A DNA stretch of 64,000 bases from an uncultured Candidatus Saccharibacteria bacterium (GTDB lineage: Bacteria > Patescibacteriota > Saccharimonadia > Saccharimonadales > JALRHH01), in contig CAZPVS010000001.1 in the NCBI GenBank assembly GCA_964590315.1, positions 42,926 through 106,925 of the forward strand. Direction: 5' to 3'. Below, piece by piece: positions 12,333 through 43,213 of this stretch. Under the pieces are notes generated by a model. That model ran no database searches and was not told the origin of the DNA. It worked only from the letters and a program-made list of their open reading frames with translations. A program made the translations under genes and the position numbers. Each line of letters starts with the position of its first letter. Position 1 is the stretch's first letter.

Positions 12333-12338
12333 ATAATT

Positions 12339-18531: not shown

Positions 18532-18684
18532 ATCGGCTCGGGCAATGCTCATATTGATTCCTGTGGCGCAGGTAACTATGTGACCGGTATCAAGTGCGTA
18601 TGGTGACGGTGGTCATGGCAGCATACAGAGGTGAGCGCATAATAGGAGATGACACGGCGTACCGTGTAGAGAGAGGAGTCCGTT

Positions 18685-19170: not shown

Positions 19171-19850
19171 ACAGTAGCGCCGAGTTTTGATTCAAATTCA
19201 TCCAGATTATGGACGGTGATTTTTCCCCGACTGACTGCAAGCAGTGAATCGTTGATAAGTTTGCGCATCTCACGACTGACGGTTTCTCGTGATAGCCCGG
19301 CTCGGGAAGCAAGCTCGTTTTCGGATATGACGACCACGCAACTGGCGTCAGGCTTAATGTCACCAAATCGACGACATTGCACAAGTATTTCATACATCAG
19401 CCTGCCCTTTGCACTTCCTCCCATCAAATGCACCATGCGTCGCAAGATGCCGTCTGTCCCGGCATAGACTCGGCTCAATAAATCAAACAATATGTCAGGG
19501 TTTTCCTTAACGAAGGAAATAACTTCTTCAGGGCGGGCAATGGACACTTCGCAATCTTCAGATGCCTGGTAGAAATATTCATTCGGTGTATTATTGACTG
19601 CCCACGACATAGGAAAGAACGTGCCTGGCTTAAAAACATTTATAACAATCTCGTCACCGCGATACGACAAATCGTACTGTCTGATCAGTCCTTTTTTTAA
19701 ATAGAAGATGTATTGCGGGTCATCATTTGCAAACACGATTATTTGCCCCTTGTCATACTGGCGAACAGGGTATTTTGCAAAAAATTCGCTGAGTTGTGCG
19801 CTAATCGTGGTTTCCATTGCAGTCTCTTTACCTATTAGTGTGCGGCACAA
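19167..19850 (-). CDS. Crp/Fnr family transcriptional regulator
   Basis: cNMP-binding beta-roll plus a C-terminal HTH (ELASRAGLSRETVSREMRKL). Confidence 0.8.
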   Translation of the reverse strand: MCRTLIGKETAMETTISAQLSEFFAKYPVRQYDKGQIIVFANDDPQYIFYLKKGLIRQYDLSYRGDEIVINVFKPGTFFPMSWAVNNTPNEYFYQASEDCEVSIARPEEVISFVKENPDILFDLLSRVYAGTDGILRRMVHLMGGSAKGRLMYEILVQCRRFGDIKPDASCVVVISENELASRAGLSRETVSREMRKLINDSLLAVSRGKITVHNLDEFESKLGATV

Positions 19851-20176
19851 TCAATAGGGATGCAACCCCGAGTTGTAATGTGACCAGGATCATGGCGCAT
19901 GCATGACACAGGTCAAGGTGTTGATACAGTCCAGCTGTCATAGTAGAAGCTAGACAAGGAGGAGGGGACATGTTTCATGCTAAGCAACATAGCAAAACAA
20001 ACATATCACTAGAACTCGAGCTGGCGTTCACGAATCGGCGGCTCCTCAAGCACCATGTATGGGAAGAGGCACGTCGACACGGCTTACTATAATTGTCGAT
20101 GTAATATTTCCCGCTGCACCGTACAGGTACACATCCTAAACTAATAGATACCAGGTAGTGGTGAAAAGGAGGGTGT

Positions 20177-20446
20177 ATGAAGCATGTGCATCGATTGCCA
20201 AGCAGCAAGGATATTATTTGGCTGAGTAAACTCGCGACGTCGTACCCAGTCACACGTCGGCAGATTGTCCGGGTTGCACGCATGTGGAATTTCAAGAATG
20301 ATCTTATCGCGTTCCTTCGTTTATTTCCCCCCGACGAGATGTTTGAGTCACGTGCAGATTTTGTAACGCGCTGTGAGGACCTGACGATATTGATCAGGCA
20401 AGAGTGGGAATCACCCAAGGAAGTACTCCGTAGCCAACAAGACTAA
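20177..20446 (+). CDS. hypothetical protein
   Basis: ORF only. Confidence 0.3.
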   Translation: MKHVHRLPSSKDIIWLSKLATSYPVTRRQIVRVARMWNFKNDLIAFLRLFPPDEMFESRADFVTRCEDLTILIRQEWESPKEVLRSQQD

Positions 20447-20457
20447 ACATAATTATA

Positions 20458-20485
20458 TTGACAAATACACAAATATGTGTATAAT
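20458..20485 (+). promoter_or_regulatory. strong sigma70-like promoter (TTGACA-16-TATAAT)
   Basis: Consensus -35 and -10 boxes. Confidence 0.45.
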
Positions 20486-20547
20486 AGTAATTGTTATATC
20501 GCGGTAAAACAAACACCCTAAAACCAAAAAACAAGAAAGGATAAAAC

Positions 20548-20652
20548 GTGAGCGTATTTGCGCTTTCGCATCAGCTGGCATATGAATTATTGCCAGCCAC
20601 CAGTGAAGAAATTGTAAACCTCGATAGAGATTTCAATGACATTTACTGCTAA
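20548..20652 (+). CDS. candidate 34-aa peptide (GTG start, RBS aggataaaac), ending in Cys
   Basis: Sits downstream of the strong promoter and upstream of a bidirectional terminator. Below the ORF-track size cutoff. Confidence 0.25.
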   Translation: MSVFALSHQLAYELLPATSEEIVNLDRDFNDIYC

Positions 20653-20749
20653 GTTATGTTGATACAAGACATCAGACCCGCCAAAAGGCTTGGTCAAAAG
20701 AAATTACGGCGTACCAGCCGCACGAGGCACTACATTGTAGTCGCCGCAT

Positions 20750-20780
20750 AAAAAAGAAGCCCCGTTATGGGGCTTCTTTT
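20750..20780. terminator. bidirectional rho-independent terminator
   Basis: aaaaaagaagcccc-gtta-tggggcttctttt. Confidence 0.55.
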
Positions 20781-21213
20781 AGTGTCTAAACCCTAATAAA
20801 TCACCCAACCCTTGTACGACACGATTTGTGTCAGTCGTCACCCCGTGAAATTCGTCAAATTCCTGCAATGGCACCCATTCAGCTTCGTCGTGTTCGTGAC
20901 TCAGCTCGATAACATCGCTCGTGGCTAGTGCGGCGAGCCCATAGACAACAATCATTCTACCGGCGTGTTTGCCTGTAAGGATTTCGCGAGGCTTTAGTAT
21001 CATGGGCCACATGGTTAACATATCAACATCCTGCCCCGCTTCTTCCTGCACTTCGCGGTGGCCAGCTATGACAGCCGGTTCGCCTGGTTGTATGCCGCCA
21101 CCCGGAAACTCCCAGCACCCAACCTGTTGTCCTTCAGCACGCCGCAGTAATAATACGCGGTCTTCATACTGGACAGCAACGCGAGCCGAATGTATTGTTT
21201 CGTATGATGCCAT
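20779..21213 (-). CDS. NUDIX hydrolase
   Basis: Nudix box GGGIQPGEPAVIAGHREVQEEAG. Confidence 0.8.
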   Translation of the reverse strand: MASYETIHSARVAVQYEDRVLLLRRAEGQQVGCWEFPGGGIQPGEPAVIAGHREVQEEAGQDVDMLTMWPMILKPREILTGKHAGRMIVVYGLAALATSDVIELSHEHDEAEWVPLQEFDEFHGVTTDTNRVVQGLGDLLGFRH

Positions 21214-22189: not shown

Positions 22190-22253
22190 GGTGACATTTA
22201 CCCTTGTGCCTTGTTATACGCCACAAAATGCTTTTGTCAATAATATTCATGCA

Positions 22254-22303
22254 CTAAAAAGACGGACCGATGTCCGTCTTGCTGTTTCCATATGGTAGCG
22301 GCG
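22254..22303. repeat. 50-bp direct repeat (partner at 23524-23573) containing a terminator hairpin and a tRNA 3'-end-like tail
   Basis: ctaaaaagacggacCgatgtccgtcttgctgtttCcatatggtagcggcg versus the partner, with 2 mismatches. The gacggac/gtccgtc hairpin is followed by TTTT on the minus strand. Confidence 0.6.
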
Positions 22304-22375
22304 CTATTAACCACTTGAAACCTGATAAAGCGTGAACTGATTCTAGAGATTCTGGTTATTAGGCGAAAAATACTA

Positions 22376-23299
22376 TCATCGACTGATGCGCACTAAGCGC
22401 GTCTCGCCATTATAAATGACCTTCAAATCAATAATCTTTTCGTTGTTTCTAACGTCTGCTTTAATCTCACCTTGTCTTGTTATGCCTTTGTTTATATCAC
22501 CACCTAGGTCAGATTGCTTATACGGATAGTAGGCATAGTTGAAGGGTGGAACGTAACGAGTACTCAACAACGAATCATAATCAAAATGTGTTTGATCTGT
22601 CTTTAGCTCTCGTCCAGTGTCAGGTAATAATGAAATAGTAATCTTCGAGCTATCGATATTATTGCTGGCGGTCAGTTCATAATTAAGGCTTAGAGTTTGG
22701 TTGTCTGCGATATATTTATTAATCGAGTTACGTGAATCATTTCTCCACTCACAATATCGTCTAGTTGGGTTGTCTTTTTCCCACTGTTCTTCGTCGTGGA
22801 ATACCCATTTGCCCGTCGCCTCATTAAAGTAATCTTGTGGTTGATTATTATCTTCTGGATATTTTGAGCAATCCTCTCTTGCGGTCAAATCTCCATACCT
22901 GCTGATTTTTTCTTGCGGGACGTTAATCTCTACCGCCTTAAAAGATGGTTCTTTTACGGTTAGTACAAAATCTGAAAAATTAATTGCATCGCTAGTGGTA
23001 TAAATCTTATCGTTTAGGTGTTGCTGATACTTGTTGTAGGCAAAGAATCCGCCACATACTAGTAGGAGCAGTAGTATTGGTAATACAAGCCACTTAACGG
23101 ACTTCTTGCCCTTAGACCTCACGACATTTACTGCAAAAAACGCGTACGCAGATAGAAGGATTATTGAGCCCATAATCAGAGACATTCCGATAGTGCTAGA
23201 GGGGTCAATGAAAAAAGATGGTATTAGAATACCCAATATGAGTACAGTCAATCCGATAGCTACTAGATGTACGGGTTTTATATTCAGTCTTTTGCTCAT
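22376..23299 (-). CDS. hypothetical membrane protein (N-terminal TM helices + extracytoplasmic domain)
   Basis: The only gene lying between the two 50-bp direct repeats. Confidence 0.45.
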   Translation of the reverse strand: MSKRLNIKPVHLVAIGLTVLILGILIPSFFIDPSSTIGMSLIMGSIILLSAYAFFAVNVVRSKGKKSVKWLVLPILLLLLVCGGFFAYNKYQQHLNDKIYTTSDAINFSDFVLTVKEPSFKAVEINVPQEKISRYGDLTAREDCSKYPEDNNQPQDYFNEATGKWVFHDEEQWEKDNPTRRYCEWRNDSRNSINKYIADNQTLSLNYELTASNNIDSSKITISLLPDTGRELKTDQTHFDYDSLLSTRYVPPFNYAYYPYKQSDLGGDINKGITRQGEIKADVRNNEKIIDLKVIYNGETRLVRISR

Positions 23300-23523
23300 T
23301 GACTCATAGTATACAAGACTAATAAAAACCCTCTAGTGTGATTTTTGTGTCTCCGCATCAAGCTAAATAAACGTACCCTGTTCATTTAAATCGTGCTAAT
23401 TCGCACTGATATGTCAATGGAATCCACCAAGCCTTAGATAGTAGCTACGATTGCTGATTCCTTATAACTCTGTGGCGGTGTCTCATGCTACTTGCCCCGA
23501 GCAGGTATTGACTTGTCAGTTAA

Positions 23524-23573
23524 CTAAAAAGACGGACTGATGTCCGTCTTGCTGTTTTCATATGGTAGCGGCG
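23524..23573. repeat. 50-bp direct repeat, second copy
   Basis: See 22254-22303. Confidence 0.6.
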
Positions 23574-23604
23574 ACTAGGCTTGAACCACTGACCTCAGGC
23601 TTAT
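23563..23604 (-). pseudogene. degenerate 3' half of the tRNA-Met gene
   Basis: tggtagcggcgactaggcttgaaccactgacctcaggcttat resembles tRNA 23686-23762, but the T-stem no longer pairs. Confidence 0.4.
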
Positions 23605-23668
23605 ATTGCATATAAACTGCAGCCATGCTCGAAGCGAGCTTCTGCGCGTAGCTTTGTTTATGAGTCCT

Positions 23669-23782
23669 ACAATTCAGAACATTTTTGGTAGCGGCGACTA
23701 GGCTTGAACTAGTGACCTCAGGCTTATGAGTCCTGCGCTCTAACCAGCTGAGCTACGCCGCCCCAAAAATGTTCTGAATTGT
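23669..23782. repeat. 18-bp inverted repeats immediately flanking the tRNA-Met gene
   Basis: acaattcagaacattttt on one side and aaaaatgttctgaattgt on the other. Confidence 0.5.
23686..23762 (-). tRNA. tRNA-Met (CAU), elongator-like
   Basis: Reverse complement GGCGGCGTAGCTCAGCTGGTTAGAGCGCAGGACTCATAAGCCTGAGGTCACTAGTTCAAGCCTAGTCGCCGCTACCA. Closely resembles E. coli elongator tRNA-Met. Confidence 0.8.
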
Positions 23783-29726: not shown

Positions 29727-31508
29727 ATGAATCAACAAAATATCCGAAACTTTTGCATTATTGCGCACATTGACCATGGCAAGTCGACACTGGCCGACCG
29801 TTTGTTAGAAATGACGGGTACGGTGGAGATGCGTGATATGAAGGCGCAACTACTCGACAGGATGGATTTGGAGCGGGAAAAAGGTATCACGATTAAACTC
29901 GCCCCTGTCAGGATGAGTTATAAAGAATTCGAACTGAACCTGATTGATACGCCAGGCCATGTAGATTTTAGCTACGAGGTATCACGAAGTTTAGAGGCAT
30001 GCGAAGGTGCGCTGCTTGTTGTAGATGCCAGCCAAGGGATTCAGGCCCAGACACTCGCTAACGTATACCTCGCTATGGACGCAGATCTGACGATCATCCC
30101 CGTGCTGAACAAAATAGACTTGCCGGCTGCCGATGTTGATCGGGTGAGCGAAGAAATCATCAGTCTCCTTGGCTGTAAAAAAGAGGATATTCTCCAGATA
30201 TCAGCCAAGACCGGTAAGGGCGTCGATGCAGTGTTGGAGCGAATTGTACACAATGTGCCACCACCCAAGGGCGACACCGCGCTTCCGACGCGGGCACTGA
30301 TATTTGATAGTTATTATGATGATTACCGCGGCGTTATACTCTATGTGCGAACTGTTGACGGTACGATTTCCAAAGGTGAACAGATTCAGATGATGGCCAC
30401 CGGCAGTCAGGGCATTGCACTGGAAGTCGGCGCGCTGAAACCACATATGTCACCACTACCTGCGTTGAATGCGGGTGAAATTGGCTATATCGTCACAAAC
30501 TTGCGGAGCACTCGGGAAGCAAAAGTTGGTGATACCGTGACGGTGGTAAAACACCCGGCCACACAGGTGCTTCCGGGATATAAAGATGTCCAGCCATTTG
30601 TGTATGCTGGATTTTTCCCAGAGAGCAATGAGCAATATAACGAGCTGAAGGAAGCAATTGAGAAATTATCGCTCAGTGATTCGGCATTGGTATGGGAGCC
30701 AGAAAATTCACCGGTGCTTGGTTTTGGTGTTCGGATTGGCTTCCTCGGGTTACTACACATGGATATTGTCCGAGAACGGTTGGAACGCGAATATAACCTC
30801 GACCTTATCGTGACGAATCCTAGTACGGATTATCAGGTAGATCTGACCTCTGGTGAGACACTAGATATTCGTAGTGCTGCTGACCTACCTGAAGTAGCGA
30901 AGATTGCAGAAATTCGTGAACCTTGGATTAAAGGTGAAGTGGTGGTACCGAAGGATTATGTCGGTCCCGTCATACAACTGATCATTAGTAAGCGGGGTAT
31001 TCAGAAGAACTTATCATTTGTTGATGCGCAGTTGGCTGTGGTGGCGTTTGATGCACCACTCGCCAATCTTCTGACAGACTTTTATGACCAGCTCAAAAGC
31101 GTCACGAGTGGCTACGGATCATTCAATTACGAACTCGATACCTATCGCCCTGAAGATTTAGTACGCGTTGATTTTTATATCGCGGGTGACATGGTGGCTG
31201 CCCTGAGTGTCATGGCGCATAAGACTGAGGCGCAGCCACTCGGACGTGACACGGTCAAGAAACTAAAGGAAGTCATTCCCCGTCAGAATTTCCAGGTTGC
31301 ATTACAAGCAGCGGTTGGTGGTCGGTTCATCGCCCGTGAAGATCTCAGCGGATACCGCAAGGATGTCACTGCCAAACTATATGGTGGTGACGTGACGCGG
31401 CGTAAAAAGTTGCTCGAGAAACAGAAAAAAGGCAAGGCACGCATGAAGCGCTTCGGCAAAGTCGATATTCCTGCCGAGGCCTTCACGGTCATGCTCAAAC
31501 GCGATTAA
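29727..31508 (+). CDS. lepA: elongation factor 4 (LepA)
   Basis: NFCIIAHIDHGKSTLADRLLE G1 motif and the LepA-specific C-terminal domain. Confidence 0.95.
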   Translation: MNQQNIRNFCIIAHIDHGKSTLADRLLEMTGTVEMRDMKAQLLDRMDLEREKGITIKLAPVRMSYKEFELNLIDTPGHVDFSYEVSRSLEACEGALLVVDASQGIQAQTLANVYLAMDADLTIIPVLNKIDLPAADVDRVSEEIISLLGCKKEDILQISAKTGKGVDAVLERIVHNVPPPKGDTALPTRALIFDSYYDDYRGVILYVRTVDGTISKGEQIQMMATGSQGIALEVGALKPHMSPLPALNAGEIGYIVTNLRSTREAKVGDTVTVVKHPATQVLPGYKDVQPFVYAGFFPESNEQYNELKEAIEKLSLSDSALVWEPENSPVLGFGVRIGFLGLLHMDIVRERLEREYNLDLIVTNPSTDYQVDLTSGETLDIRSAADLPEVAKIAEIREPWIKGEVVVPKDYVGPVIQLIISKRGIQKNLSFVDAQLAVVAFDAPLANLLTDFYDQLKSVTSGYGSFNYELDTYRPEDLVRVDFYIAGDMVAALSVMAHKTEAQPLGRDTVKKLKEVIPRQNFQVALQAAVGGRFIAREDLSGYRKDVTAKLYGGDVTRRKKLLEKQKKGKARMKRFGKVDIPAEAFTVMLKRD

Positions 31509-31611: not shown

Positions 31612-32850
31612 ATGGCGAGATTACCAGTACCTGGCAGTGATGATGGCACCTGGGGCGGGGTGCTGAATGATTTCCTGGCCCAGGAGCATAATGCTGATGG
31701 CACCCTCAAGATAAAGACTGACGGTACCCTTGCCGCCAAGGCTAATGATAGTACGGTTGTTCACGTTTCTGGGAACGAATCAATCGGTGGAACGAAAACG
31801 TTCGTGTTGTCGCCGGTAGTTCCCGCTCCCACTCTCGGATCGCAGGTAGCTAATAAAACCTATGTAGATACACAAGTTGCTTCGGGAATACCTGATGGGT
31901 CAGTCACTGCTGCAAAGATTGCAAGCGATGCTGTAGATGATTCTAAGGTTGCCCCGAGTGCGGCTATTGCCCAGAGCAAGGTTGCTAACCTTACGACAGA
32001 CTTAAGTAACAAGGCCGATAGTTCTGCAGTTATCATGCGTTCTATTGCAGATGCCAAAGGCGACCTAATCGTGGCGACCGCGAATGATACGGTAACACGA
32101 CAGGCTGTGGGAGGTGACGGTCAGATTTTGTTTGCAGATTCAGCGGAGCCAACAGGTATACGCTGGGCAAATGCGCCTGCTAGTGGAGAGACAAATACCG
32201 CAAGCAATGTTGGTGCTACTGGTGTCGGTGTGTTCAAGCAAAAAAACGGTGTAAACTTTGAATTTAAGAATATCGCAGCGGCATCTAGCAAAGTCACTGT
32301 CACAGATGATGGCGCAAACGATGAGATTGATGTAGATGTGAATGAAGCTAACTTCAGCGGCATTCCTCAATCGGCTGTGACCGATCTAACCACCGACTTA
32401 GCTGCTAAAGTTGATGATACTGAGAAAGGTGTGGCTAATGGTATAGCAACACTCGATGCGGGCACTAAAATTCCTGTCGGCCAATTACCTACAGCAGCTA
32501 CTGCGAGGGTCCTACCATATTCATATTACGGTAGTTTGATGGTAAGCACGGGCACCTTCCGGCTCTATAATGATAGTGGAACAGATTGGACAGTTACGGG
32601 TGTTCGCGCTTCACTCGGCACGGCGCCAACAGGAACAAGTGTCATTATTGATATCAACAAAAACGGAACAACGTTGTTTACCAACCAAGCCAACAGGCCA
32701 ACTATTGCGATTAGTTCTAATACGTCAGGAAATGTTACAAATATGGATGTCACTACTATTGCAGACGGTGAATACTTAACGGTTGATATCGATCAAGTGG
32801 GCTCCGGAACTAAAGGTGCAGATCTAACAGTACAGGTAGGAGTAGCGTAA
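31612..32850 (+). CDS. phage-tail-fibre-like secreted protein
   Basis: N-terminal [19 protein letters not shown] and an internal [17 protein letters not shown] motif of the kind seen in tail-fibre/receptor-binding proteins. T/S/A/V-rich beta repeats. Confidence 0.45.
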
Positions 32851-33866
32851 TGGCATTATTGTTTATGGATGGATTTGGTGGCGGCACCGACGCCACTCAG
32901 AAATGGGATATAACGAGTACTGCATACAGTACGCAGACAGCAACGCCCAGAACGCCCGGTTGTTACTATGGGAGGCTAACATCTGTCCGTAACATGTACA
33001 AATCGTTTACCCCTTCTTCGAAAATTGTTATCGGGATAGGCATATTCTCGCCAGATCGAGCGTGGAATTTTAGTTTTAGCGGGGACGGAGGTGTCACAAC
33101 ACACATCACCATCGTATGGAACATGGGAACGGGCATGCTCGAGCTCAGAAGGGGCACCTCGAGCGGGACTCTTCTTGTCACCGGTACGCAACCGTTATAT
33201 CAAAACCAATGGAACTATATTGAAGCATCCGTGACTATATCAGATACCGTAGGTGAGGTGCATGTTCGTCTAAACGGCTCACCCACTGATGAAATATCTT
33301 TTGTAGGAGATACCAAAAACGGAGGTACGAATACGACAGTTGATAAGTTCACTATATACTCTGGAAACGGTGCAGCGTCATATATTAATATCTCAGACTG
33401 TTACATATTGAATGATACCGGAAGCTCTAATAATGATTTCTTAGGTGACGTCGTTGTCCGTACATTAAGCCCGTCTAGTAACGGGACCTACACGCAGCTA
33501 ACTGGCTCTGACGGGAACCAAATCGACAACTATTTGCTTGTTGATGAGCATCCGTATAGCTCAACTGACTATGTGGGTAGCGCGACCCCCGGAGATAAAG
33601 ATACGTACGTATTTGAAGATTTACCGGGTGGTGTAGCTACTGTTCATGCAGTACAGGTAAACGGTATGATGTCGAAAAACGACGGAGGGGTTGCCTCTGC
33701 ACGGTACGTAATACGATCTGCTGGGAGCGATTATCCAGGCACCACACGTGCTTTGACGACCTCATATACGGCATATCAGGAACTGCACGAGACCGATCCT
33801 GCAACAGGAATATCGTGGACACCAGCAGCTGTCAACGACCTTGAGTCGGGCATGGAAGTCATTTAG
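32850..33866 (+). CDS. hypothetical beta-rich (jelly-roll-like) protein
   Basis: Start codon overlaps the upstream stop (translational coupling). S/T/G/N-rich composition. Confidence 0.4.
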   Translation: MALLFMDGFGGGTDATQKWDITSTAYSTQTATPRTPGCYYGRLTSVRNMYKSFTPSSKIVIGIGIFSPDRAWNFSFSGDGGVTTHITIVWNMGTGMLELRRGTSSGTLLVTGTQPLYQNQWNYIEASVTISDTVGEVHVRLNGSPTDEISFVGDTKNGGTNTTVDKFTIYSGNGAASYINISDCYILNDTGSSNNDFLGDVVVRTLSPSSNGTYTQLTGSDGNQIDNYLLVDEHPYSSTDYVGSATPGDKDTYVFEDLPGGVATVHAVQVNGMMSKNDGGVASARYVIRSAGSDYPGTTRALTTSYTAYQELHETDPATGISWTPAAVNDLESGMEVI

Positions 33867-33892
33867 CTAATCGCATACGGTGAGGGATACCC

Positions 33893-35164
33893 ATGAGCTA
33901 TATTACTGAGCAGGACGCAGATACACCTCTTTCTCGCTGGCAATTTGAGGAAGTTGCTGGCAGTACCATTGATGATGATATTACCGCTACCCGTGATGGC
34001 ACCATTAATGGCGGCGTGACACTAAACCAGAGCGGTGCTTTTAATAATAAAGCAGGTGTAGGCGCGGATTTTGACGGTACATCGGGGTATGTGAACTTTG
34101 GGGACGCTGCTGGCTTGCTCGGTATTGGTACTATCGAAGCCGTTGTACAATTCGATACCATTCCAGGTTCTGCTGCCAATCCTATCTTTACACATGCCTG
34201 GTCTGGTGGACAGATTATTCCACTTGCAATTGGCTTCAATATTGATTCTGCCAACGCAGGCAAACTACAGGTAGGTTATTTTACCGGAGCTGTCTGGGTT
34301 ACTGCTACATGGTCAACCGCCCCAACGGCAGGTGTCGCGTATCACATCGTTGGTACGTATGATGGCACTACACTGAAGCTACGCGTTAATGGCAGTGAGG
34401 TCGCCGTGACAACAGTAGGAACGGTTCGTCCAGGCGCAGGTGTCGTTAATGCTTCAGCATACATTGGCCGGAGGTGGGATACGGCACAATATCATGATGG
34501 CCGTATATTCGATGTTGCAATATATGCTGCAGCGCTTAGTGATGTTAGAGCGAATGCTCACTATGCCGCGCTTGCAAATGAGTTTGCGGATAATTTTGCT
34601 GATGCAGGTATTCTATCCGACGGCTATCAGATTTCGGGAATCGATACAACTACGTGGACAACTGAAACAGGAGAGCCGGGGACGATAGATAAAACAGGAT
34701 GGACAACCCTTACTCCAACTGTGTCTGGTCCGCACACTCTTTCTACGGTTGGCTCGGACCATGACACCATTCTCAATGTGTACACCGGAACAATAATTGA
34801 TAGTCTGGTGCTGGTTGCCTCCGATGATGATTCAGGGGGTTCCGGAACATCTTATCTTACGACGCAGCTCACAAGTGGAACGACATATTACGTGCAGGTT
34901 GGATCACCACTTGCTGGGAGTGGAGGTATCCTTTCGTTCAGTGTTTCTCATAATGCGAATGCACAGCTGTCGGCTATTAGCACTGAGGCGCTCGTTCTCG
35001 CATCTGGCGCAGAGCGAACCATGACTGCCATGGCCGTGGAGGCCTTGATAGACACGGGAATTGCCGAGCGGATGATGAGTAGCATATCTGTCGAGGTATT
35101 AGTACCTGCTCGCCTTACTCATGCTGGCTGGGGCGTGCCAGTGCGTCCTCAGGATTGGACATAG
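33893..35164 (+). CDS. LamG-like (Laminin_G_3 / concanavalin-A-like lectin) domain protein
   Basis: FDGTSGYV...VGTYDGTTLKLRVNG matches the Laminin_G_3 signature. C-terminal 3 x 18-aa repeats (ISTEALVLASGAERTMTAM...). Confidence 0.55.
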   Translation: MSYITEQDADTPLSRWQFEEVAGSTIDDDITATRDGTINGGVTLNQSGAFNNKAGVGADFDGTSGYVNFGDAAGLLGIGTIEAVVQFDTIPGSAANPIFTHAWSGGQIIPLAIGFNIDSANAGKLQVGYFTGAVWVTATWSTAPTAGVAYHIVGTYDGTTLKLRVNGSEVAVTTVGTVRPGAGVVNASAYIGRRWDTAQYHDGRIFDVAIYAAALSDVRANAHYAALANEFADNFADAGILSDGYQISGIDTTTWTTETGEPGTIDKTGWTTLTPTVSGPHTLSTVGSDHDTILNVYTGTIIDSLVLVASDDDSGGSGTSYLTTQLTSGTTYYVQVGSPLAGSGGILSFSVSHNANAQLSAISTEALVLASGAERTMTAMAVEALIDTGIAERMMSSISVEVLVPARLTHAGWGVPVRPQDWT

Positions 35165-35168: not shown

Positions 35169-35630
35169 CTATGGAGTTTGTAAAAGCCGCAGTTCTTTTA
35201 TTATCTCCGCCGCATGGGTTTGCACGTTAACCCTCGGGTATTCTTTGACTATATAACCTTCAGGATTGATAATATATGTCGATCTTGTTATACCAAAAAT
35301 TTCACGGCCGAATAACTTCTTGGGTTTCCATGCACCGTATGCCGAAATCACGATATGGTCGGGGTCGCTTAGTAACGGAAAGTTGAGCCGGTGCTTTGTG
35401 GCGAAACGTTTATGGTCTGCCACACTGTCCATACTGATACCAATTACCTCCGCGTTGCCAAGCTGACGAATCGCTTCGCGGCCATCCCGAAAGTTGCATG
35501 CTTCAGCAGTACACCCCGGTGTATCATCTTTCGGATAAAAATAGAGGACGAGCCATTTCCCCGTGTAGTCTGAAAGACGGTGACGAATACCATTTTGATC
35601 GAGGAGAGAGAAATCCGGTGCTTGTCTCAT
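35169..35630 (-). CDS. bcp: peroxiredoxin (Bcp / PrxQ family thiol peroxidase)
   Basis: APDFSLLDQNG...YFYPKDDTPGCT active-site motif. The internal ATG (MRQAP..) is the likely start rather than the track start at 35708. Confidence 0.8.
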   Translation of the reverse strand: MRQAPDFSLLDQNGIRHRLSDYTGKWLVLYFYPKDDTPGCTAEACNFRDGREAIRQLGNAEVIGISMDSVADHKRFATKHRLNFPLLSDPDHIVISAYGAWKPKKLFGREIFGITRSTYIINPEGYIVKEYPRVNVQTHAAEIIKELRLLQTP

Positions 35631-35685
35631 GTAGATAATATTGTAACACTCTGAATGCACGCAAACTGGTACAATACCTCTTATC

Positions 35686-36420
35686 ATGCACGTAGAACTC
35701 GCCAACAAACAAGCATTCCAGGAAATCCTTGCCCACTATCAGCCTGCACCCGAATCAATCGGTATACTGAGTCGCATCCCCCTGGTTATTTTATTGGGTG
35801 TTTCAGGGAGTGGGCGAAATACCATTATTAATCATCTCGCTAAGACTGGAAAGTATCGGTACATCATTTCCGACACGACTCGTCCTCCCAAGGTACGAGA
35901 CGGCAAAATAGAACAACACGGTGTCAATTATTACTTCCGGAGTGAAGAAGATGTTCTGCAAGATTTACGTGAGGGGAGATTTCTTGAAGCCGAGCTGATA
36001 CATAACCAACAGGTATCCGGCATGAGTATACGTGCTCTGACGGAGGTTGCCGAAAGCGGCAAAATTCCTATTAATGAAGTCGATATTGGTGGTACCGATA
36101 ATATACTGAATGCCAAGCCGGACACACATTTTTTCTTTATTATCCCCCCTAGCTATGAGGAATGGATTCGTCGACTTAATGCGCGTGAAGTTATGACCGA
36201 GAAAGAGCGCAATAACAGAGTCAGTACCGCAATACGTGTCATCGAGAAGGGACTGAAGGAGGACCATTTTACGTTTGTTATCAATGATTCATCGGAAGCA
36301 TCTGCCCACAAAATCGACGAGCAAATACGCGGGGTTCGGGATACCGGTCATCACGATGAAGCCCGCGAGGTGGCTCGACGAATACTTGAGGATATCAAGC
36401 ACCACTACATACTCAGCTAG
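35686..36420 (+). CDS. guanylate-kinase-like family protein
   Basis: P-loop GVSGSGRNT and the DTTRPPKVRDGKIEQHGVNYYF guanylate-kinase signature region. Confidence 0.55.
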   Translation: MHVELANKQAFQEILAHYQPAPESIGILSRIPLVILLGVSGSGRNTIINHLAKTGKYRYIISDTTRPPKVRDGKIEQHGVNYYFRSEEDVLQDLREGRFLEAELIHNQQVSGMSIRALTEVAESGKIPINEVDIGGTDNILNAKPDTHFFFIIPPSYEEWIRRLNAREVMTEKERNNRVSTAIRVIEKGLKEDHFTFVINDSSEASAHKIDEQIRGVRDTGHHDEAREVARRILEDIKHHYILS

Positions 36421-36500: not shown

Positions 36501-37991
36501 GTGTTGGAAATTATGAAAAAATTACATTTAGTAGTATCAGGTGCCATATTGGCAGTCTTGGGGTTAGCCATAGGTTTCAGCGGTGTTTTTGCTGCAACAG
36601 GAAGTATTTATCTTGCCCCTGCAACAGTTAGTGTGCAAAAAGACAGTAATGTCACAGTCGCTGTTCGTATTAACCCTGGAACAAATGTCGATGGTGTAGA
36701 GGCCAACCTAACGTTTGATACGACCCAACTGAAATTCATCGGATTTAACTCGGCGGGGACTCAGTTCGATGCCAAGTTAATGGAAAAAGTCACTGGTGGG
36801 ACAGTGAATATCGCTCGAGGGAACCTCAGCGGGGGAGTGAGCTCTGATGCCCTGGTCACACAAGTGATATTTCAGGCTGTTGGGAGCGCAGGTAGCATAA
36901 ATGTAAACCTCACGGGCAATGCCACAAGCAGTGGATCATATACATCACCCAATACAAGTGGTGCAACTATAAAGATTACCGTGCCGACTACTCCGCCACC
37001 AACCACTACGCCGACAACCCCACCACCAACACAGGATCCAGCTCCGTCAGCTCCAACTAGTCCTGCGCCTAGTGCTGACCCAGGCACCACTAATACGCCC
37101 CCGACAAACACGAATGGTTCTGATGGATCATCCTCCCCAGGGCAGGCTGCCTCAAGTGGCTCGGCCGTTAATGTAAGTAGTAGTGACATTCAATTCACGA
37201 AAGCTGGCATTGAACTCAAGAGCGAGAAACCTTTTAAAGCTTATATAGTCTATGGCACCAATGGCCAACTAAACTTACAAACTGCGCCAACAGAATTGGG
37301 AACAAAGCATACGGTTGTGCTGGACGAGTCTAAATTACAACCAGGCACCTCGTATCAGTTTAAGATCATCAGTGAAGATGCAAATGGGGTCCGTTCTGAG
37401 TCAACGGCCCAGACATTTAAGACAAAAGGCTACACACTTCGGATAACCATTCTTGGGAAGAGCAATAAACCACTCAAGAAACAGCAGATTACACTCTATT
37501 CTGACCCGCAAAAGGCAAGGACTGACAATAGTGGCGTGGCACTCTTTGACAACGTTAGCCCAGGTACACATACCGTTGAATATGAACAGGATGGTAAGAA
37601 GTACTCCCAAAAAGTATTGGTAGATAACACCGTAGTAACCGGAGGCGACGGGAAACAAACCGCTGAGCCACAGAATATTGCGGTACTGTATGATGATCTC
37701 GAGGTACCAGCTACACAAAATATACTTATACTGAGTAGTATATTTGCAGGGCTGCTCCTGATCGGTGCTCTATTTATCCTAAAGAAATCAGGCTTCGTGG
37801 CACAGAAGAAGTTTGCTTCAGCTCACAGTGTGATAACTACTACGACAGTCTCGCCGCCATCAAGCGCACCAGCAAACGTTACGGAAAAACCTGAAGACAC
37901 TGCTCCTATATTCCAACAACAATACCAGAGCCTCCCACAGCCAGGCTCGACAGTTAACCCCGTTCGAAACGATAATAACGAGGATAAGTGA
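36501..37991 (+). CDS. membrane-anchored surface protein with an N-terminal cohesin-like domain, P/T linker and a carboxypeptidase-regulatory-like beta domain
   Basis: Signal peptide. The cohesin-type block ATVSVQKDSNVTVAVRINPGTNVDGVEANLTFDTTQLKF. A PTTPPPTTTPTTPPPT linker. C-terminal TM helix ILILSSIFAGLLLIGALFIL. Confidence 0.55.
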   Translation: MLEIMKKLHLVVSGAILAVLGLAIGFSGVFAATGSIYLAPATVSVQKDSNVTVAVRINPGTNVDGVEANLTFDTTQLKFIGFNSAGTQFDAKLMEKVTGGTVNIARGNLSGGVSSDALVTQVIFQAVGSAGSINVNLTGNATSSGSYTSPNTSGATIKITVPTTPPPTTTPTTPPPTQDPAPSAPTSPAPSADPGTTNTPPTNTNGSDGSSSPGQAASSGSAVNVSSSDIQFTKAGIELKSEKPFKAYIVYGTNGQLNLQTAPTELGTKHTVVLDESKLQPGTSYQFKIISEDANGVRSESTAQTFKTKGYTLRITILGKSNKPLKKQQITLYSDPQKARTDNSGVALFDNVSPGTHTVEYEQDGKKYSQKVLVDNTVVTGGDGKQTAEPQNIAVLYDDLEVPATQNILILSSIFAGLLLIGALFILKKSGFVAQKKFASAHSVITTTTVSPPSSAPANVTEKPEDTAPIFQQQYQSLPQPGSTVNPVRNDNNEDK

Positions 37992-39499
37992 TCATGGCGG
38001 TCCTAGGTTTATTCTCACGAAAGACAATCCTCGTCTTATTGGGATCGGTCCTATTACTCATTGCTGTGCAGACAAATTCTGCGCAGGCTGCATGTTCCGC
38101 GCAACCTACGACCTACGGAAGCTCCACAATGACGGTGAACGTACCAAATGCCGGAACGTACCGCGTCTGGAGCCGAATTATGGCACCAAACACAACTGCC
38201 AATTCTTATATTCTTGAGGTAGACGATACAACTTGTAATATTGTCGTGGGTGACAGTGCTATTGCGGCAAATACGTGGACATGGGTTGATTACAAGAGTG
38301 CAACCACAACAAATAAAGTGTCATTAACCCTGACTGCAGGTCAGCATACATTTAAGATGATTGGGCGCGAAGCCAATGTTAAGTTAGATCGTATTATTTT
38401 AACTGCTGACACGACTTGTGTTCCGACAGGAACGGGAGAAAACTGCGCCAATCCACCTGACACAACCCCACCCGTAGTGGCTCTATCTTCACCGGCCGCT
38501 GGTGCAACGGTATCGGGCCCCACTGCAATTCGAGCCACGGCGAGTGATGACGTGGCTGTAAGCAAGGTAGAATTTTATGTTAACAGCACCCTCAGGGGTG
38601 CCGATACCTCTGCAGCAACCGGTGGCGTTTATGAAGTCACCTTTGATATGTCATCATTAGCTCCTGGCCAGCACACTATATATGCCCGGGCTTATGACAC
38701 ATCTTCATCGGGTAATCCCGTCAGCAGCAGCATCCGATCAGTTACTGTCGCAGACAAAACTCCTCCAACGGTCACCCTAACGACACCTACGGCTGGTGCA
38801 ACCGTGTCAGGAACAAGTACGTTCTCAGCAAACGCCACTGATAATGTAGGGGTGACCAAAGTTGAATTCCTCGTTGATGGTGCTGTTGTCGCCACTGATA
38901 CAGCTTCTCCGTATACCGTTTCTGTCGATACAAAACTATTCACTAACGGAGCGCATACCGTTATAGCTCGAGCTTCCGACGCTGGTGGCAATACGACCCC
39001 AACTGCAGGGGTGAATATAACTGTCAGCAACATCACGGTGCCCGTTGACACCACTCCCCCAACGGTATCCATAACGAACCCCGCGTCCAGTGCGACTATT
39101 TCAGGGACAGCAGCATTCTCTGCAAACGCCACTGATAATGTAGGGGTGACCAAAGTTGAATTCCTCGTTGATGGTGCTCTGAAAAGTACTGACACAACCG
39201 CTCCTTATGACTACAGCCTTAATACCTCTACGCTTACTAACGCTGCACATAATCTGACTGTAAAAGCTTACGATGCAGCTGGTAATATGCAGACAAACTC
39301 AGTGAGTGTAACGGTTTCAAACGTGACGTACCTCAGGGAGGACATCAATAGCGACGGTACAGTCAACATCCAAGACTTCAGCCTTCTTGCAGCCAAGTTC
39401 GGGCAAACAGGTTCAAACCTAGGGCGTGAGGACATCAATAGCGACGGTACAGTCAACATCCAAGACTTCAGCCTTCTTGCAGCCAAGTTCGGGGCTTAA
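37988..39499 (+). CDS. secreted protein with three Ig-like (Big) repeats and two C-terminal dockerin-type repeats
   Basis: Signal peptide. Three repeats of TPPTV..P..GATVSG....A.A.DNVGVTKVEF.VDG. Two copies of REDINSDGTVNIQDFSLLAAKFG, which is a dockerin Ca-binding repeat pattern (D.N.DG.VN..D). Confidence 0.6.
   Translation: MIMAVLGLFSRKTILVLLGSVLLLIAVQTNSAQAACSAQPTTYGSSTMTVNVPNAGTYRVWSRIMAPNTTANSYILEVDDTTCNIVVGDSAIAANTWTWVDYKSATTTNKVSLTLTAGQHTFKMIGREANVKLDRIILTADTTCVPTGTGENCANPPDTTPPVVALSSPAAGATVSGPTAIRATASDDVAVSKVEFYVNSTLRGADTSAATGGVYEVTFDMSSLAPGQHTIYARAYDTSSSGNPVSSSIRSVTVADKTPPTVTLTTPTAGATVSGTSTFSANATDNVGVTKVEFLVDGAVVATDTASPYTVSVDTKLFTNGAHTVIARASDAGGNTTPTAGVNITVSNITVPVDTTPPTVSITNPASSATISGTAAFSANATDNVGVTKVEFLVDGALKSTDTTAPYDYSLNTSTLTNAAHNLTVKAYDAAGNMQTNSVSVTVSNVTYLREDINSDGTVNIQDFSLLAAKFGQTGSNLGREDINSDGTVNIQDFSLLAAKFGA
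39338..39493. repeat. tandem 66-bp perfect direct repeat (period 90 bp) encoding the two dockerin repeats
   Basis: gaggacatcaatagcgacggtacagtcaacatccaagacttcagccttcttgcagccaagttcggg occurs twice. A ~64-bp near-identical repeat also sits at ~38822 and ~39116 (the Ig-like repeats). Confidence 0.8.
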
Positions 39500-40261: not shown

Positions 40262-40475
40262 TGATAGCGTGCGTGCAGAGCTTGTTTCGGTACACCTGGA
40301 AGCAGCAAAAGATAGAGATGAGGGGCTACTATTTTGTGCAAATGCACGAATAGAAGCGGCGCGACTCACTATTTTTTTGAGTGGGTTGAGCTGGGAGGAC
40401 ACAGATGTTGCTGACCGGGAAGCTACAGAAATCGTGAATGATTTCAATGAAGAAATGAGGAGGCTGAATGTCTAA
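40254..40475 (+). CDS. hypothetical 73-aa protein overlapping the hrcA end and the grpE start by 8 nt each
   Basis: ORF in a third frame. Acidic. Possibly translationally coupled. Confidence 0.3.
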   Translation: MLSDSVRAELVSVHLEAAKDRDEGLLFCANARIEAARLTIFLSGLSWEDTDVADREATEIVNDFNEEMRRLNV

Positions 40476-40926
40476 GAAACCATCAGTAAAGGAACTAGAG
40501 GAAAAAGTTGCCGAACTCACTGAAGCTTTGCAGCGGGAGCGGGCAGATATTATAAACGTCCGCCGCCGACACGACGAACAGATTACGAGCCTTAAGAGCA
40601 TCGTGAAGGCCGGTATTATCCGTGACCTCCTCCCAATTATTGATAACTTTGAGCGTGCGCTAAAACACGTGCCGGATGATCTGAAGAACAACGACTATAT
40701 TCAAGGGGTGCAGGGTATTGTTAAACAGTTCGAAAAAACATTGGAGGAAATTGGGGTGACACGTATTGCTACCGTAGGCACACTATTTAATCCCGTTGTT
40801 CATGAAGCCGTGAGTATGGAAGACGGCGATGGCACTACGGAAATGGTGAGTGAGGAATTACAATCAGGCTATCAGCTTGGCGATGAAGTGATCCGCCATG
40901 CTATGGTACGTGTACGGATGCAGTAA
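40468..40926 (+). CDS. grpE: nucleotide exchange factor GrpE
   Basis: Coiled-coil N-terminus and the GrpE block IRDLLPIIDNFERAL. Confidence 0.9.
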   Translation: MSKKPSVKELEEKVAELTEALQRERADIINVRRRHDEQITSLKSIVKAGIIRDLLPIIDNFERALKHVPDDLKNNDYIQGVQGIVKQFEKTLEEIGVTRIATVGTLFNPVVHEAVSMEDGDGTTEMVSEELQSGYQLGDEVIRHAMVRVRMQ

Positions 40927-40992: not shown

Positions 40993-41334
40993 TTGGGGAG
41001 CAGGGACATGTCATTTAGTCCGAGTGGCGGAAATATTTCAGGAGCTGACGATGTTGCACTGAGCAATCCTCAGGACGAACATGTGCTTACGTATGATAGT
41101 GGAACAGCGAAGTGGACCAACCAAGCACTCTCTGCTTCGTCACCAACTTACGAGAATCTCCCTGCCGGCACCACCGTTACGGTGACAAAAACGGCCGGTA
41201 CATGGCCGGCACGCCCCACAGCCCGCACCGATATTGTCGTGATTTGGAAAGGTGCAGACCCCTCGCCAGCAATTGTCTCGTCAGGTACAGGCGGTATGCT
41301 CGATGGCGTTGATATGAGGTTTGTAACTGCATAA
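40993..41334 (+). CDS. hypothetical small secreted or tail-fibre-tip-like protein
   Basis: DDVALSNPQDEHVLTYDSGTAKWTNQ motif. Preceded by its own promoter-like ttgttc-17-tatagt. Confidence 0.35.
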   Translation: MGSRDMSFSPSGGNISGADDVALSNPQDEHVLTYDSGTAKWTNQALSASSPTYENLPAGTTVTVTKTAGTWPARPTARTDIVVIWKGADPSPAIVSSGTGGMLDGVDMRFVTA

Positions 41335-42197
41335 TGGCAAACTTACTCTGGAATGTATCCCAATCGCAATTGCAACGGCGGGGTGTTGCCCAGGACGCCG
41401 TCATAAATATACTCAACACTGATTTTGACGCTTTTCCAGTGTCTGATCCCATAACCATAGAAAATTATCGGACTGCAATGGGCATGACAAGCGGTGGCGG
41501 ATCATCTACAGTCGCTCGGACTGCTATCGTCTCAGAAGCTGGCCGAGGCAATGTTATACGACAGCACTTCCATGCTGGACAGTACGGTACTGCTGACGGT
41601 ATCTCTGTAAACGCGCCGCTAACAATGACTGTCGATGAGGCCACTATCACTTTTGATGTTCGTTTCACTGGTGCCAGTTTTGACTGGGGATGGGGCGGTA
41701 AATTACCGGGGCTCGCGGGTGTACGACCTGGGTACGGGAGTCCACCTTCAGGTGGCGTTCCATCTTCGTACGGATGGTCTTGTCGTGGTATGTGGATTAC
41801 CCCTGGGTCATATCCGGGCTCTTCAAGTGTACCAAATGAATTGGTTGGATATATGTATGACCCTACGCAGCTACCTGGTAATTATGGCCAAAACCGCCAA
41901 ACCAATGTTTCTTTTGTGGCCGACCAGTGGCATACCGTCAGACAGTACTACAAGATGAATACGGTCAATGTAGAGGGGGTATCCGGAAACGCTGATGGGA
42001 TTCATCTTATGTGGCTGGACGACGTTCTTGTCTATTCAAATTATACCCAAGTCTATCGTATCTACGAGGAAGCGCGTATCACACATCTTATGTGGAGTAT
42101 GTTTTACGGCGGTAATACGGTTGACTGGGCGCCAGCCATAGATACCGATATTGATATCGATAATCTACTCATTACCACACCTGTCTGGAGCAATTAG
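41334..42197 (+). CDS. possible polysaccharide-lyase-like jelly-roll protein
   Basis: DWGWGGKLPGLAG...SCRGMW...YMY resembles the conserved core of Polysacc_lyase/PL-like families as I remember it. Not verified. Confidence 0.4.
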   Translation: MANLLWNVSQSQLQRRGVAQDAVINILNTDFDAFPVSDPITIENYRTAMGMTSGGGSSTVARTAIVSEAGRGNVIRQHFHAGQYGTADGISVNAPLTMTVDEATITFDVRFTGASFDWGWGGKLPGLAGVRPGYGSPPSGGVPSSYGWSCRGMWITPGSYPGSSSVPNELVGYMYDPTQLPGNYGQNRQTNVSFVADQWHTVRQYYKMNTVNVEGVSGNADGIHLMWLDDVLVYSNYTQVYRIYEEARITHLMWSMFYGGNTVDWAPAIDTDIDIDNLLITTPVWSN

Positions 42198-42199
42198 AT

Positions 42200-43213
42200 A
42201 TGGCAGTATTACAAAACAATGCTGAAGGAGGAACAGTCGGGGTTACCGTTACAACTGGTAACTCAGGGGGGGCATCAGGTGATGCATTTAATCAGGTCAC
42301 GATAACCGGTGCATCGTCATGCGTGTTCGCCAACAACGTGAGTGCACACGGCACACAGTCCTATCGTATTACAGGCATAGCGGGCGATACGGCTAAGTTT
42401 TATTTAGGTGCTTCAGATACTGCAGAAGGTTCGCTGAGAGTTTATTTTTACCTGAACAATCTACCAAGTACTGCCCAGAGCGTCTTCCAGATGCAGAATT
42501 CTTCGTTTAGTAGCATGGCAAGCATTAATCTGACTGCGTCTAACCAACTGCGAGTGACCGATACAACAGGTGCAACCTTATTCACCGCCGCGGCTTCTTT
42601 GAGTGGATCTACCTGGTACCGTATTGAAATGCAAGTTATCGCCGGAGTAGATGCAAGCAGCGGTACGATACATTTCCAATATTATCAGGGTGATTCAACA
42701 ACCGCTGAAGAAACGTATAGTAGTACTACAGTTAACACGGGCACCATTACCGCTCGCCGACTGCATGTGGGCAAAATCAATTCCAGTCCGGCTCTTGATG
42801 CTAATTTTGATGACATTGCTTATGACTCTACCGCTACGGCAATCGGGCCATATGGGGCGAATGTGCCACCTGTTGCGATCGCTGGCCTGGATAAGAGTTA
42901 TGTTGAGCCTTATGCGACTGTTACGCTCCAGGGGGGTGGATCATCTGATAGTGACGGAAGCATCACAAGTTATACCTGGGTGCAGACGGCAGGTACTCCA
43001 GCTGTGACCTTGAATGGTAGTGGTGCATCACGAACTTTTACTGCGCCGGCTACTATCGCAGGCACGACACTGACCTTCGGGCTTACGGTGACAGATAATG
43101 ATGGCGCCTCGTCCACACAAGATACAGTGTCTATCACGATTCTTCCTGTGACGGAAAGAGCAGTGATTGGCGGTGTGGAAGTACCCGCACAACTCTACGC
43201 AGCACAATCATAG
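42200..43213 (+). CDS. secreted protein with a LamG-like N-terminal domain and a C-terminal PKD/Ig-like domain
   Basis: The C-terminal AIAGLDKSYVEPYATVTLQGGGSSDSDGSITSYTWVQTAGTPAVTLNGSGASRTFTAP...LTFGLTVTDNDGASSTQDTVSITI segment is a classic PKD domain pattern. Confidence 0.5.
   Translation: MAVLQNNAEGGTVGVTVTTGNSGGASGDAFNQVTITGASSCVFANNVSAHGTQSYRITGIAGDTAKFYLGASDTAEGSLRVYFYLNNLPSTAQSVFQMQNSSFSSMASINLTASNQLRVTDTTGATLFTAAASLSGSTWYRIEMQVIAGVDASSGTIHFQYYQGDSTTAEETYSSTTVNTGTITARRLHVGKINSSPALDANFDDIAYDSTATAIGPYGANVPPVAIAGLDKSYVEPYATVTLQGGGSSDSDGSITSYTWVQTAGTPAVTLNGSGASRTFTAPATIAGTTLTFGLTVTDNDGASSTQDTVSITILPVTERAVIGGVEVPAQLYAAQS

Follow-up and report, generated by a model that had tools for sequence, protein, structure and literature searches.

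Tailocins such as the R- and F-type pyocins have exchangeable fiber genes, and gene transfer agents (GTAs) have fiber and head-spike genes at separate loci; in both, fiber and accessory genes without signal peptides are chromosomal, kept by selection, and diversified by recombination. Chromosomal proteins resembling phage tail fibers also occur in a bacterium that lives off other bacteria, Bdellovibrio bacteriovorus, in which all 21 mosaic adhesive trimer (MAT) fibers have a signal peptide and an anchor domain of about 130 aa and have been shown on the cell surface (PMC10769870). For symbionts of the candidate phyla radiation (CPR) and DPANN groups and for their viruses, LamG/ConA-like proteins have been proposed in generic terms as adhesion aids (PMC11310336 and references therein). 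In Saccharibacteria, type IV pili and some adhesins have been implicated in the attachment of a few oral strains (PMC9894109, PMC10633639). Here, we describe three adjacent genes, P1, P2, and P3, in a 64,000-nt stretch of contig CAZPVS010000001.1 from an uncultured Candidatus Saccharibacteria bacterium (the window). They encode a phage-type fiber protein, a tip protein, and a LamG lectin, and very probably constitute a domesticated, selection-maintained phage tail-fiber tip module forming a two-headed, carbohydrate-binding fiber. Our preferred reading of its role, to which we assign a probability of roughly 0.4, is that the block is a chromosomally fixed distal (receptor-binding) tail-fiber module of siphophages that would serve to recognize the surface glycans of other cells.

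P1 (31612–32850, 412 aa), P2 (32850–33866, 338 aa), and P3 (33893–35164, 423 aa) all lie on the + strand. The initial annotation of this region had proposed a three-gene operon over this span, located between lepA and bcp, in which the start of the middle gene overlaps the stop of the first. The open reading frames (ORFs) agree with it in each respect: the three genes form one same-strand block, the P1 stop and the P2 start have one base in common (gtaGCGTAATGgca; TAATG), lepA (29727–31508) precedes the block, and a convergent gene of the AhpC/TSA type, bcp (35169–35708, − strand), follows it. P2 and P3 are 26 nt apart, and a ribosome-binding site of the AGGAG/GAGGG (Shine-Dalgarno-like) type stands 5′ of each. 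A consensus scan detected a promoter-like sequence, TTGTCT-17 nt-CATAAT, 5′ of P1 (31538–31566, + strand), of which both hexamers and the spacing are kept in the 90%-identical relative L102 (labels L003 to L131 denote related chromosomal loci or viral contigs). We propose that the three proteins are made from this one putative, host-type promoter and that their translation is coupled.

Phage origin can be stated more firmly than was possible in the initial annotation, because the uncharacterized middle protein, P2, turns out to be the most clearly phage-derived of the three. A match to phrog_2448 (E 7e-36) spans it from end to end, and Pfam contains no match for it; its family, for which no Pfam family exists, comprises 21,270 clusters at 50% identity (E ≤ 1e-3). 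In the AlphaFold model (pLDDT 81.7), a CBM6/lectin-like β-sandwich (aa 1–190) is predicted to be followed by a linker and a C-terminal β domain (aa 250–338). A Foldseek search with the full-length model retrieved the β-sandwiches of lectins, galectins, and the levanase C-domain with a probability of 1.0 at TM scores of about 0.3, while the family profile matched the CBM6 entries 1o8p and 1nae in the PDB (E 5e-4 over about 70 residues) and a precomputed PF03422 match is found in two homologues. The polar residues D79, H85, E125, R140, N157, D165, and Y185 are invariant, as is a GDTKNGGT motif. The whole of P2 superposes on many phage proteins with TM scores of 0.7–0.84, several of them from phages with multiple paralogues; one, from Achromobacter phage AchV4, is annotated as a virion structural protein. 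By tblastn, the P2 homologue closes the tail module of phiCbK-like Caulobacter phages (gp317–gp315), where it stands between the genes for the large virion tail proteins and that for the endolysin; the record of phiCbK gp315 carries no virion-associated flag. The homologue in the Pseudanabaena cyanophage Pam4, gp35, follows the baseplate genes; we traced no experimental source for the "polysaccharide lyase" label found in Pam4. An alignment-based scan of IMG/VR recovered P2 relatives in 110 viral stretches, a search for which a single-sequence P2 query gave no viral contig, and some relatives belong to phages or prophages of Actinobacteria.

P1 has the build of a tail fiber, and both motifs that had led the initial annotation to this assignment prove to be of phage tail type. 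It matches minor-tail families of PHROG as well as phrog_27064, and its more than 1000 homologues are modular proteins of 234–698 aa in which the Pfam families DUF5907, PTR, BppL_N, and Collagen occur, with phage tail repeats in the shaft. The N-terminal motif (aa 1–33; 31612–31710, + strand) is an adaptor of the form MxRLPxPG that is near-invariant across these homologues. It is present in 25 IMG/VR contigs, and tailspikes of the pectate-lyase fold, encoded directly after the tape measure protein, begin with it in the viral contigs L107 and L111. The internal motif (aa 286–302; 32467–32517, + strand) lies at the junction of shaft and knob, within phrog_1446 and phrog_5596. A strict regular expression for it gave 0 matches among the fetched viral loci; the segment aa 254–308 matches 418 records of isolate phages by tblastn, annotated as minor tail, tail fiber, or virion structural proteins and about 87% of them with hosts in Actinobacteria. 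The C-terminal part (aa ~300–412; 32509–32847, + strand) is a jelly-roll knob that matches phrog_27064 with an E value of 1e-27 and is encoded in at least 258 viral stretches. The full-length model of P1 is poor (pLDDT 59.7), as is to be expected for a trimeric fiber, and the fold search was therefore restricted to the knob, which alone among the parts of P1 is modeled confidently (pLDDT ~85) and gave weak Foldseek matches to CBM36/35 and to jelly rolls of the C1q/TNF type.

P3 contains the Laminin_G_3 domain (PF13385) and the 18-aa C-terminal repeats that had been attributed to it from the sequence. The LamG domain (aa 61–217) scores 58 bits (E 1.6e-15) against a gathering cut-off of 27.6 bits, and the domain in an S-layer domain-containing protein deposited in the PDB as entry 4qvs is a further match by sequence (E 6e-4). 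Next comes a β-rich middle part (aa ~228–350), and the only Pfam matches outside the LamG domain are weak ones to Ig_7 and Pur_ac_phosph_N (aa 306–339). Three diverged repeats (AQLSAISTEALVLASGAER, TMTAMAVEALIDTGIAER, and MMSSISVEVLVPARLTH; aa ~357–410) of the form xSxE(A/V)Lx are visible at the protein level only, as no tandem repeat underlies them in the DNA; they run into the terminus VEVLVPARLTHAGWGVP, and the whole, ending in VEVLVPARLTHAGWGVPVRPQDWT, is a putative docking module (34952–35161, + strand). These C-terminal 70 or so residues are homologous to a separate protein of 64–101 aa in other cassettes and in the viral contigs L006 (IMGVR_UViG_3300049811_000046) and L008, a small repeat protein ending in a GWG motif for which PHROG has no match. 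In the comparison with L131, the repeats are the fastest-evolving part of P3 (dN 0.29), save for the conserved terminus. About 25 full-length homologues of P3 were found, and the named ones are all from Saccharimonadia; seven contigs carry homologues of both P3 and P2, six of which also have a P1 homologue. LamG relatives of P3 adjoin P2 genes in phages. No match was obtained for P1, P2, or P3 in NCBIfam or among the defense models of PADLOC-DB.

The order of the three genes recurs. In 12 loci of Saccharimonadia/Patescibacteria, an N-motif fiber with knob is followed by one to four P2 genes and a protein with a GWG end; the terminal protein is separate (64–101 aa) in 8 of 11 related loci and in the other three is fused, as in the window, behind a LamG or other domain to give proteins of 304–483 aa. 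Over whole locus regions, the P2 copy number ranges from 1 to 5. The phage contig L006 has the order tape measure protein, hub, tail proteins, knob fiber, two P2 genes, and a 99-aa repeat protein ending in FIGWG, and L008 has a knob fiber, P2, and a small GWG-ended repeat protein. By local tblastn, the gene directly 5′ of P2 ends in the P1 knob in many viral contigs; conversely, P2 lies immediately 3′ of the knob in 13 of 80 knob-bearing viral loci. Judged from these sequences, the fiber-P2-GWG layout is a conserved three-part arrangement of phage tail tips. Knobs are 57–72% identical whichever P2 clade follows, and P2 proteins 37–65%, which fits a docking platform that carries a variable specificity factor.

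Among the closest known counterparts of the cassette are the distal tail-fiber modules of siphophages, namely phiCbK-like phages, Pam4, and L006, in which the P2 homologue comes last among the tail genes; L006 and L008 share with it the succession of knob fiber, P2 (two copies in L006), and small FIGWG repeat protein. Unlike these modules, the window cassette stands alone among housekeeping genes, its fiber begins with the MxRLPxPG adaptor instead of FN3 repeats, and a LamG lectin precedes, in one fused chain, what is elsewhere the small terminal protein; a sensor kinase accompanies the cassette in other genomes. As a Laminin_G_3 protein of a CPR genome, P3 resembles those treated in PMC11310336, which deals with LamG proteins generically and in which we found no fiber-P2-GWG module, tail origin, or locus behavior. 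Our search of the Saccharibacteria/Patescibacteria literature found no description of the module either.

Taken together, these features suggest how the product might be built. P1 would be the fiber, with an N-terminal adaptor, a shaft of the actinophage type, and a C-terminal jelly-roll knob; P2, as a CBM6-like sugar-binding protein, would dock on the knob; and the P3 lectin would be held at the tip by its C-terminal repeat/GWG tail, which elsewhere is a stand-alone protein. The result would be a fiber tip with two different carbohydrate-binding heads.

Is the block simply what is left of a prophage? The initial annotation had argued against this from the absence of capsid, terminase, and portal genes, and a wider survey upholds its view. 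Of the 58 ORFs of at least 150 aa, 37 other window proteins were scanned against PHROG and Pfam, leaving aside 15 obvious housekeeping ORFs and a 152-aa ORF (40468–40926). Only two phage-type matches emerged, a serine integrase and a 189-aa ORF; combined with phage-ORF comparisons, the survey yielded not a single gene for a capsid, terminase, portal, or tail tube across the 64-kb window. When all + strand ORFs of four phage contigs were compared with the window and 10 related chromosomal loci, only the knob and P2 matched. Tube, sheath, tape measure, and baseplate genes are likewise absent from the window and from the 10 kb on either side of the related loci examined, nor did any other phage gene turn up within that distance of the cassette in the window or in the Saccharimonadia loci examined. 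The neighbors of the cassette are housekeeping genes, and the module does not lie downstream of tape measure or baseplate genes as it does in phages. Its GC content of 0.47–0.49 is that of the surroundings.

That the three genes are all of phage origin and that a serine integrase lies 22 kb 5′ of them could be taken to point to a decaying prophage remnant without current function. The integrase, which is the only recombinase in the window, stands beside tRNA-Met and is separated from the cassette by at least 12 housekeeping-type genes, including tilS, ftsH, murJ, and lepA; a repeat search of the window found no repeats or attachment sites flanking or involving 31612–35164. Furthermore, the genes are under strong purifying selection. 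Measured against L102, which is 90% identical and has syntenic flanks, P1 has a dN/dS of 0.062 that is uniform along the gene, and P3 has a dN/dS of 0.039 against L131. The cassette ORFs are intact in every copy examined, without frameshift or truncation, and the cassette is conserved and syntenic across genomes in which lepA is only 78% identical. These selection and synteny results already contradict a remnant, an explanation we consider almost certainly wrong; together with the lack of nearby phage genes and the syntenic slot, they support the view of a domesticated module put forward in the initial annotation.

Named homologues and synteny with named MAGs assign the window to Saccharimonadia (Saccharibacteria/TM7), and the chromosomal slot is a recurrent one. 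The order tilS-ftsH-murJ-lepA-[cassette]-gmk-hrcA-grpE-dnaK is found again in L096, L098, L090, L103, and L131, while L003, L004, and L100 carry the cassette at other chromosomal sites. Within the slot, the cassette is more diverged than its surroundings. Compared with L131, the flanking bcp and gmk are 91–92% identical (dS ~0.45–0.5), whereas identity falls to 83% in P3, where dS is saturated, and to 70% in the P2 C-terminus. Between the window, L096, and L098, every pair shows about 58% identity for P2 and about 70% for the knob, although housekeeping proteins are 80–83% identical between L096 and L098 and 42–78% between either of them and the window. Together, these comparisons indicate that whole alleles are replaced at a fixed site, with purifying selection acting within alleles.

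The same observations bear on a further explanation, namely that the cassette is a selfish or phage-serving reservoir of alleles that moves between Saccharimonadia chromosomes and phages by recombination, with selection acting while it is carried by phages and the cell gaining nothing, comparable to the tail-fiber genes of cryptic lambdoid prophages in E. coli. In a rough neighbor-joining tree, which has long branches and is indicative only, chromosomal P2 copies form no single group but at least four clades, among which copies from viruses and from actinobacterial prophages are interspersed. Moreover, the knob of the phage L006 is 62–70% identical to chromosomal knobs and so lies inside the chromosomal range, and the excess divergence of the cassette extends to synonymous sites, as import by recombination would have it. 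Against a mere reservoir stand the occupation of the same chromosomal slot behind a conserved putative promoter of the host type, the intact ORFs of all examined copies, and the absence of a flanking integrase, attachment site, or repeat. The fusion of N-motif and knob sets the two populations apart in particular: it is present in 11 of 11 chromosomal cassettes with the 5′ end present and in 0 of 185 viral loci examined. Finally, a cellular sensor kinase is co-transcribed with the cassette in L100, at gaps of 10 and 18 nt. We hold this explanation to be improbable.

This enzyme is a sensor histidine kinase of the membrane whose extracytoplasmic region is Ig-like and contains Cys. Members of this one family, of 634–646 aa, lie beside the cassette in five genomes of differing context: adjoining it in L088 (5823–7673), L092 (5324–7141), L098 (7025–8929), and L089 (14764–16575), and within the cassette operon in L100 (6590–8530). 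It is found neither in the window nor in the phage loci examined for it.

The initial annotation had described the first and third proteins as secreted, which the sequences do not bear out. In a signal-peptide test based on the maximal Kyte-Doolittle 15-residue mean in the first 40 aa, P1, P2, and P3 reach at most 0.75 and show no N-terminal hydrophobic region or transmembrane segment, while the nearby genes at 36501 and 37988 score 2.7–2.95 and encode classic signal peptides. Lacking signal peptides, P1–P3 are most likely assembled in the cytoplasm, as in phages, and any role at the surface requires a further route of export or release. The notion that they are adhesins fits the carbohydrate-binding folds, the expansion of paralogues, and allele replacement, and is weakened by the missing signal peptides and the tail-type N-terminal adaptor. 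The two neighboring surface proteins with signal peptides are encoded as a pair at 36501–39499 (+ strand). In the second, three Big_7 Ig domains are accompanied by a dockerin-like C-terminus with a perfect 66-nt duplication (39338–39403 and 39428–39493); dockerin-domain proteins have been reported to be essential for epibiotic growth in Southlakia (PMC10633639).

The absence of signal peptides also sharpens the comparison with the MAT fibers of Bdellovibrio. In both cases, phage-tail-fiber-like proteins are encoded on the chromosome of a bacterium that lives off other bacteria, and both systems pair a single invariant N-terminal module with a variety of distal domains in a repertoire of several members, a likeness that is analogous, not homologous. 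In L100, an 804-aa tailspike-like protein of the pectin-lyase fold (2522–4936, − strand), encoded divergently from the cassette, starts with the P1 N-motif, and second N-motif genes are also present in L103 and L096. This suggests that Saccharimonadia have a family of N-motif proteins with differing distal domains, and the occurrence of the motif on both the fiber and the pectin-lyase-fold protein of L100 may, by analogy with MAT fibers, reflect a shared anchor with different tips. The differences are considerable: P1–P3 lack signal peptides; no S74 chaperone or β-helix fiber domain was detected in the cassette; and three components take the place of a single chain, with no sequence relationship to it.

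An alternative is that the fibers dock not on the cell but on a phage-type tail, either (a) that of a tailocin- or GTA-like particle encoded elsewhere or (b) those of infecting siphophages. Compared with cell recognition, it accounts better for the lack of signal peptides and for the adaptor that P1 has kept. Without signal peptides, assembly would be cytoplasmic, as in phage morphogenesis; the tailspikes that bear the N-motif in phages have their genes right behind the tape measure gene; and both the gene order of phages and translational coupling are fully kept. Several N-motif phage contigs are Saccharibacteria-like in tetranucleotide usage (r 0.61–0.74, within the range of Saccharibacteria loci), several N-motif proteins with different distal domains occur in one genome, as a multi-fiber baseplate would need, and the linked sensor kinase could trigger production. 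Allele replacement is typical of tailocin fiber loci and of arms-race genes, and the cassette resembles tailocin and GTA fibers in having chromosomal fiber and accessory genes without signal peptides that are kept by selection and diversified by recombination.

Unlike tailocins, whose genes are usually contiguous, and GTAs, the cassette has no tube, sheath, tape measure, baseplate, or capsid genes, and no terminase gene, in the window or within 10 kb of the examined loci, and to our knowledge no phage-tail-like particle has been reported in Patescibacteria. For version (b), in which the adaptor would plug into the tails of infecting siphophages so that their progeny are mis-armed or retargeted and kin are spared, a population-level protection against phages, there is no precedent and no match to a PADLOC defense model; also, a decoy needs only the adaptor, yet knob, P2, and LamG are under strong purifying selection. 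We rate docking on a phage-type tail, in either version, as the main rival of cell recognition, unlikely although deserving serious consideration. The specific proposal that the fibers are mounted on infecting siphophages through the 33-aa adaptor, so that the progeny leave with sugar-binding tips chosen by the host and are disarmed or retargeted while kin are protected, appears distinctly improbable.

We favor recognition of other cells because of the folds, the logic of the repertoire, the dynamics of the locus, the linkage to a kinase, and the affinity that the shaft and certain P2 clades show to actinophages. The predicted sugar-binding folds in all three proteins support this reading, and the adjoining sensor kinase supports it as a link to cell physiology. 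Actinobacteria are the known hosts of cultivated Saccharibacteria (PMC10633639), and phages interacting with both groups have been reported (PMC10633639; PMC10746230; PMC13578794); the occurrence of the shaft motif and of some P2 relatives in actinobacterial phages and prophages is consistent with a gene pool that matches the host phylum. A Saccharibacterium equipped with the fiber would recognize a polysaccharide on the surface of another cell, for which its bacterial host is the most plausible candidate, and would vary its specificity through exchange of entire cassette alleles and P2 duplication.

Several observations weigh against such a role. P1–P3 and their homologues have neither signal peptide nor transmembrane segment nor recognizable sorting motif, and the adaptor of P1 is the type that phages use on tailspikes beside the tape measure protein, which suggests docking on a tail instead of the cell envelope. 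No DUF5907 or LamG entry came up when the Tn-seq and annotation tables of the cultivated Southlakia epibionticum were searched by keyword, so the cassette may be absent from the best-studied epibionts. Finally, the tetranucleotide usage of the closest phage copies, L005, L006, and L008 (GC 48–55%), singles out no host. L008 additionally encodes a DnaE-like polymerase (18536–20996, + strand) with 34.5% identity over 854 aa to the Saccharimonadales dnaE of L004, a possible hint at the host of that phage.

The remainder of the window contains a few further features. The serine integrase is a large recombinase of 551 aa (7851–9538) whose 3′ end overlaps tRNA-Met on the opposite strand; 3′ of it lie a second tRNA-Met and a low-GC stretch (0.40–0.41) of unknown genes (10000–13800), in which an 80-nt direct repeat (73% identical) brackets a 441-aa ORF (12339–13664). 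Together, these features probably mark a small integrated element that has nothing to do with the cassette. The 189-aa ORF (14848–15417, + strand) is rich in Ala, Gly, and Val and has weak similarity to repeats found inside phage tape measure proteins (phrog_58, E 1e-8); its length is insufficient for such a protein, and the match is probably one of low complexity. Within 22253–23762, the 3′ part of tRNA-Met is duplicated (23563–23604 and 23686–23727, 95%) and a 51-nt repeat (96%) brackets the gene 22376–23299, and within 56450–56829, beside tRNA-Lys, the segments 56528–56579 and 56722–56773 are duplicates. These duplications adjoining tRNA genes look like scars of integration. A diversity-generating retroelement at the cassette was considered and rejected, as no template/variable repeat pair was found for it in the window; none of the 37 proteins scanned against PHROGs matched a reverse transcriptase, and an RVT_1 reverse transcriptase about 9 kb 3′ of the cassette (L098, 20122–21005, − strand) is confined to that one related genome.

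On the 3′ side of the cassette, bcp is followed by gmk, the two surface proteins, hrcA, grpE, a gene pair, and dnaK. As called mechanically, the bcp ORF has a TTG start and overlaps the start of gmk; its true start is probably an internal ATG (MRQAPDF...), which removes the overlap, since the L131 product has 154 aa. The pair between grpE and dnaK (41334–43213, + strand) encodes a PL14 polysaccharide lyase (E 3e-24) and a PKD/K319L-like protein, both without signal peptides, and may be a second glycan-directed accessory cassette of this kind; the corresponding slot is empty in L096 and holds a glycoamylase in L098. Kinship of P2 with the neighboring PL14 lyase at 41334 was considered, and none was found.

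These findings define two large unannotated families, that of P2, with some 21,000 clusters and no Pfam model, and that of the small repeat/GWG protein, for which no family exists, and the three-part layout of the tail tip should be useful for phage annotation. Should the fibers dock on phage tails, this would be a new kind of interaction between host and phage; in the case of infecting siphophages, it would amount to defense by hijacking phage assembly, with a specificity renewed by cassette swapping and, in some lineages, production triggered by an envelope sensor kinase. For the organism itself, the implication concerns host choice, which in episymbiotic Patescibacteria is largely unexplained beyond a few oral strains and for which the cassette is a candidate determinant. 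It has the properties expected of a determinant of specificity, being widespread in environmental Saccharimonadia, under purifying selection, subject to allele swaps at a fixed locus and to P2 duplication, and endowed with predicted carbohydrate-binding folds throughout, and it therefore offers concrete genes to delete, label, or express.

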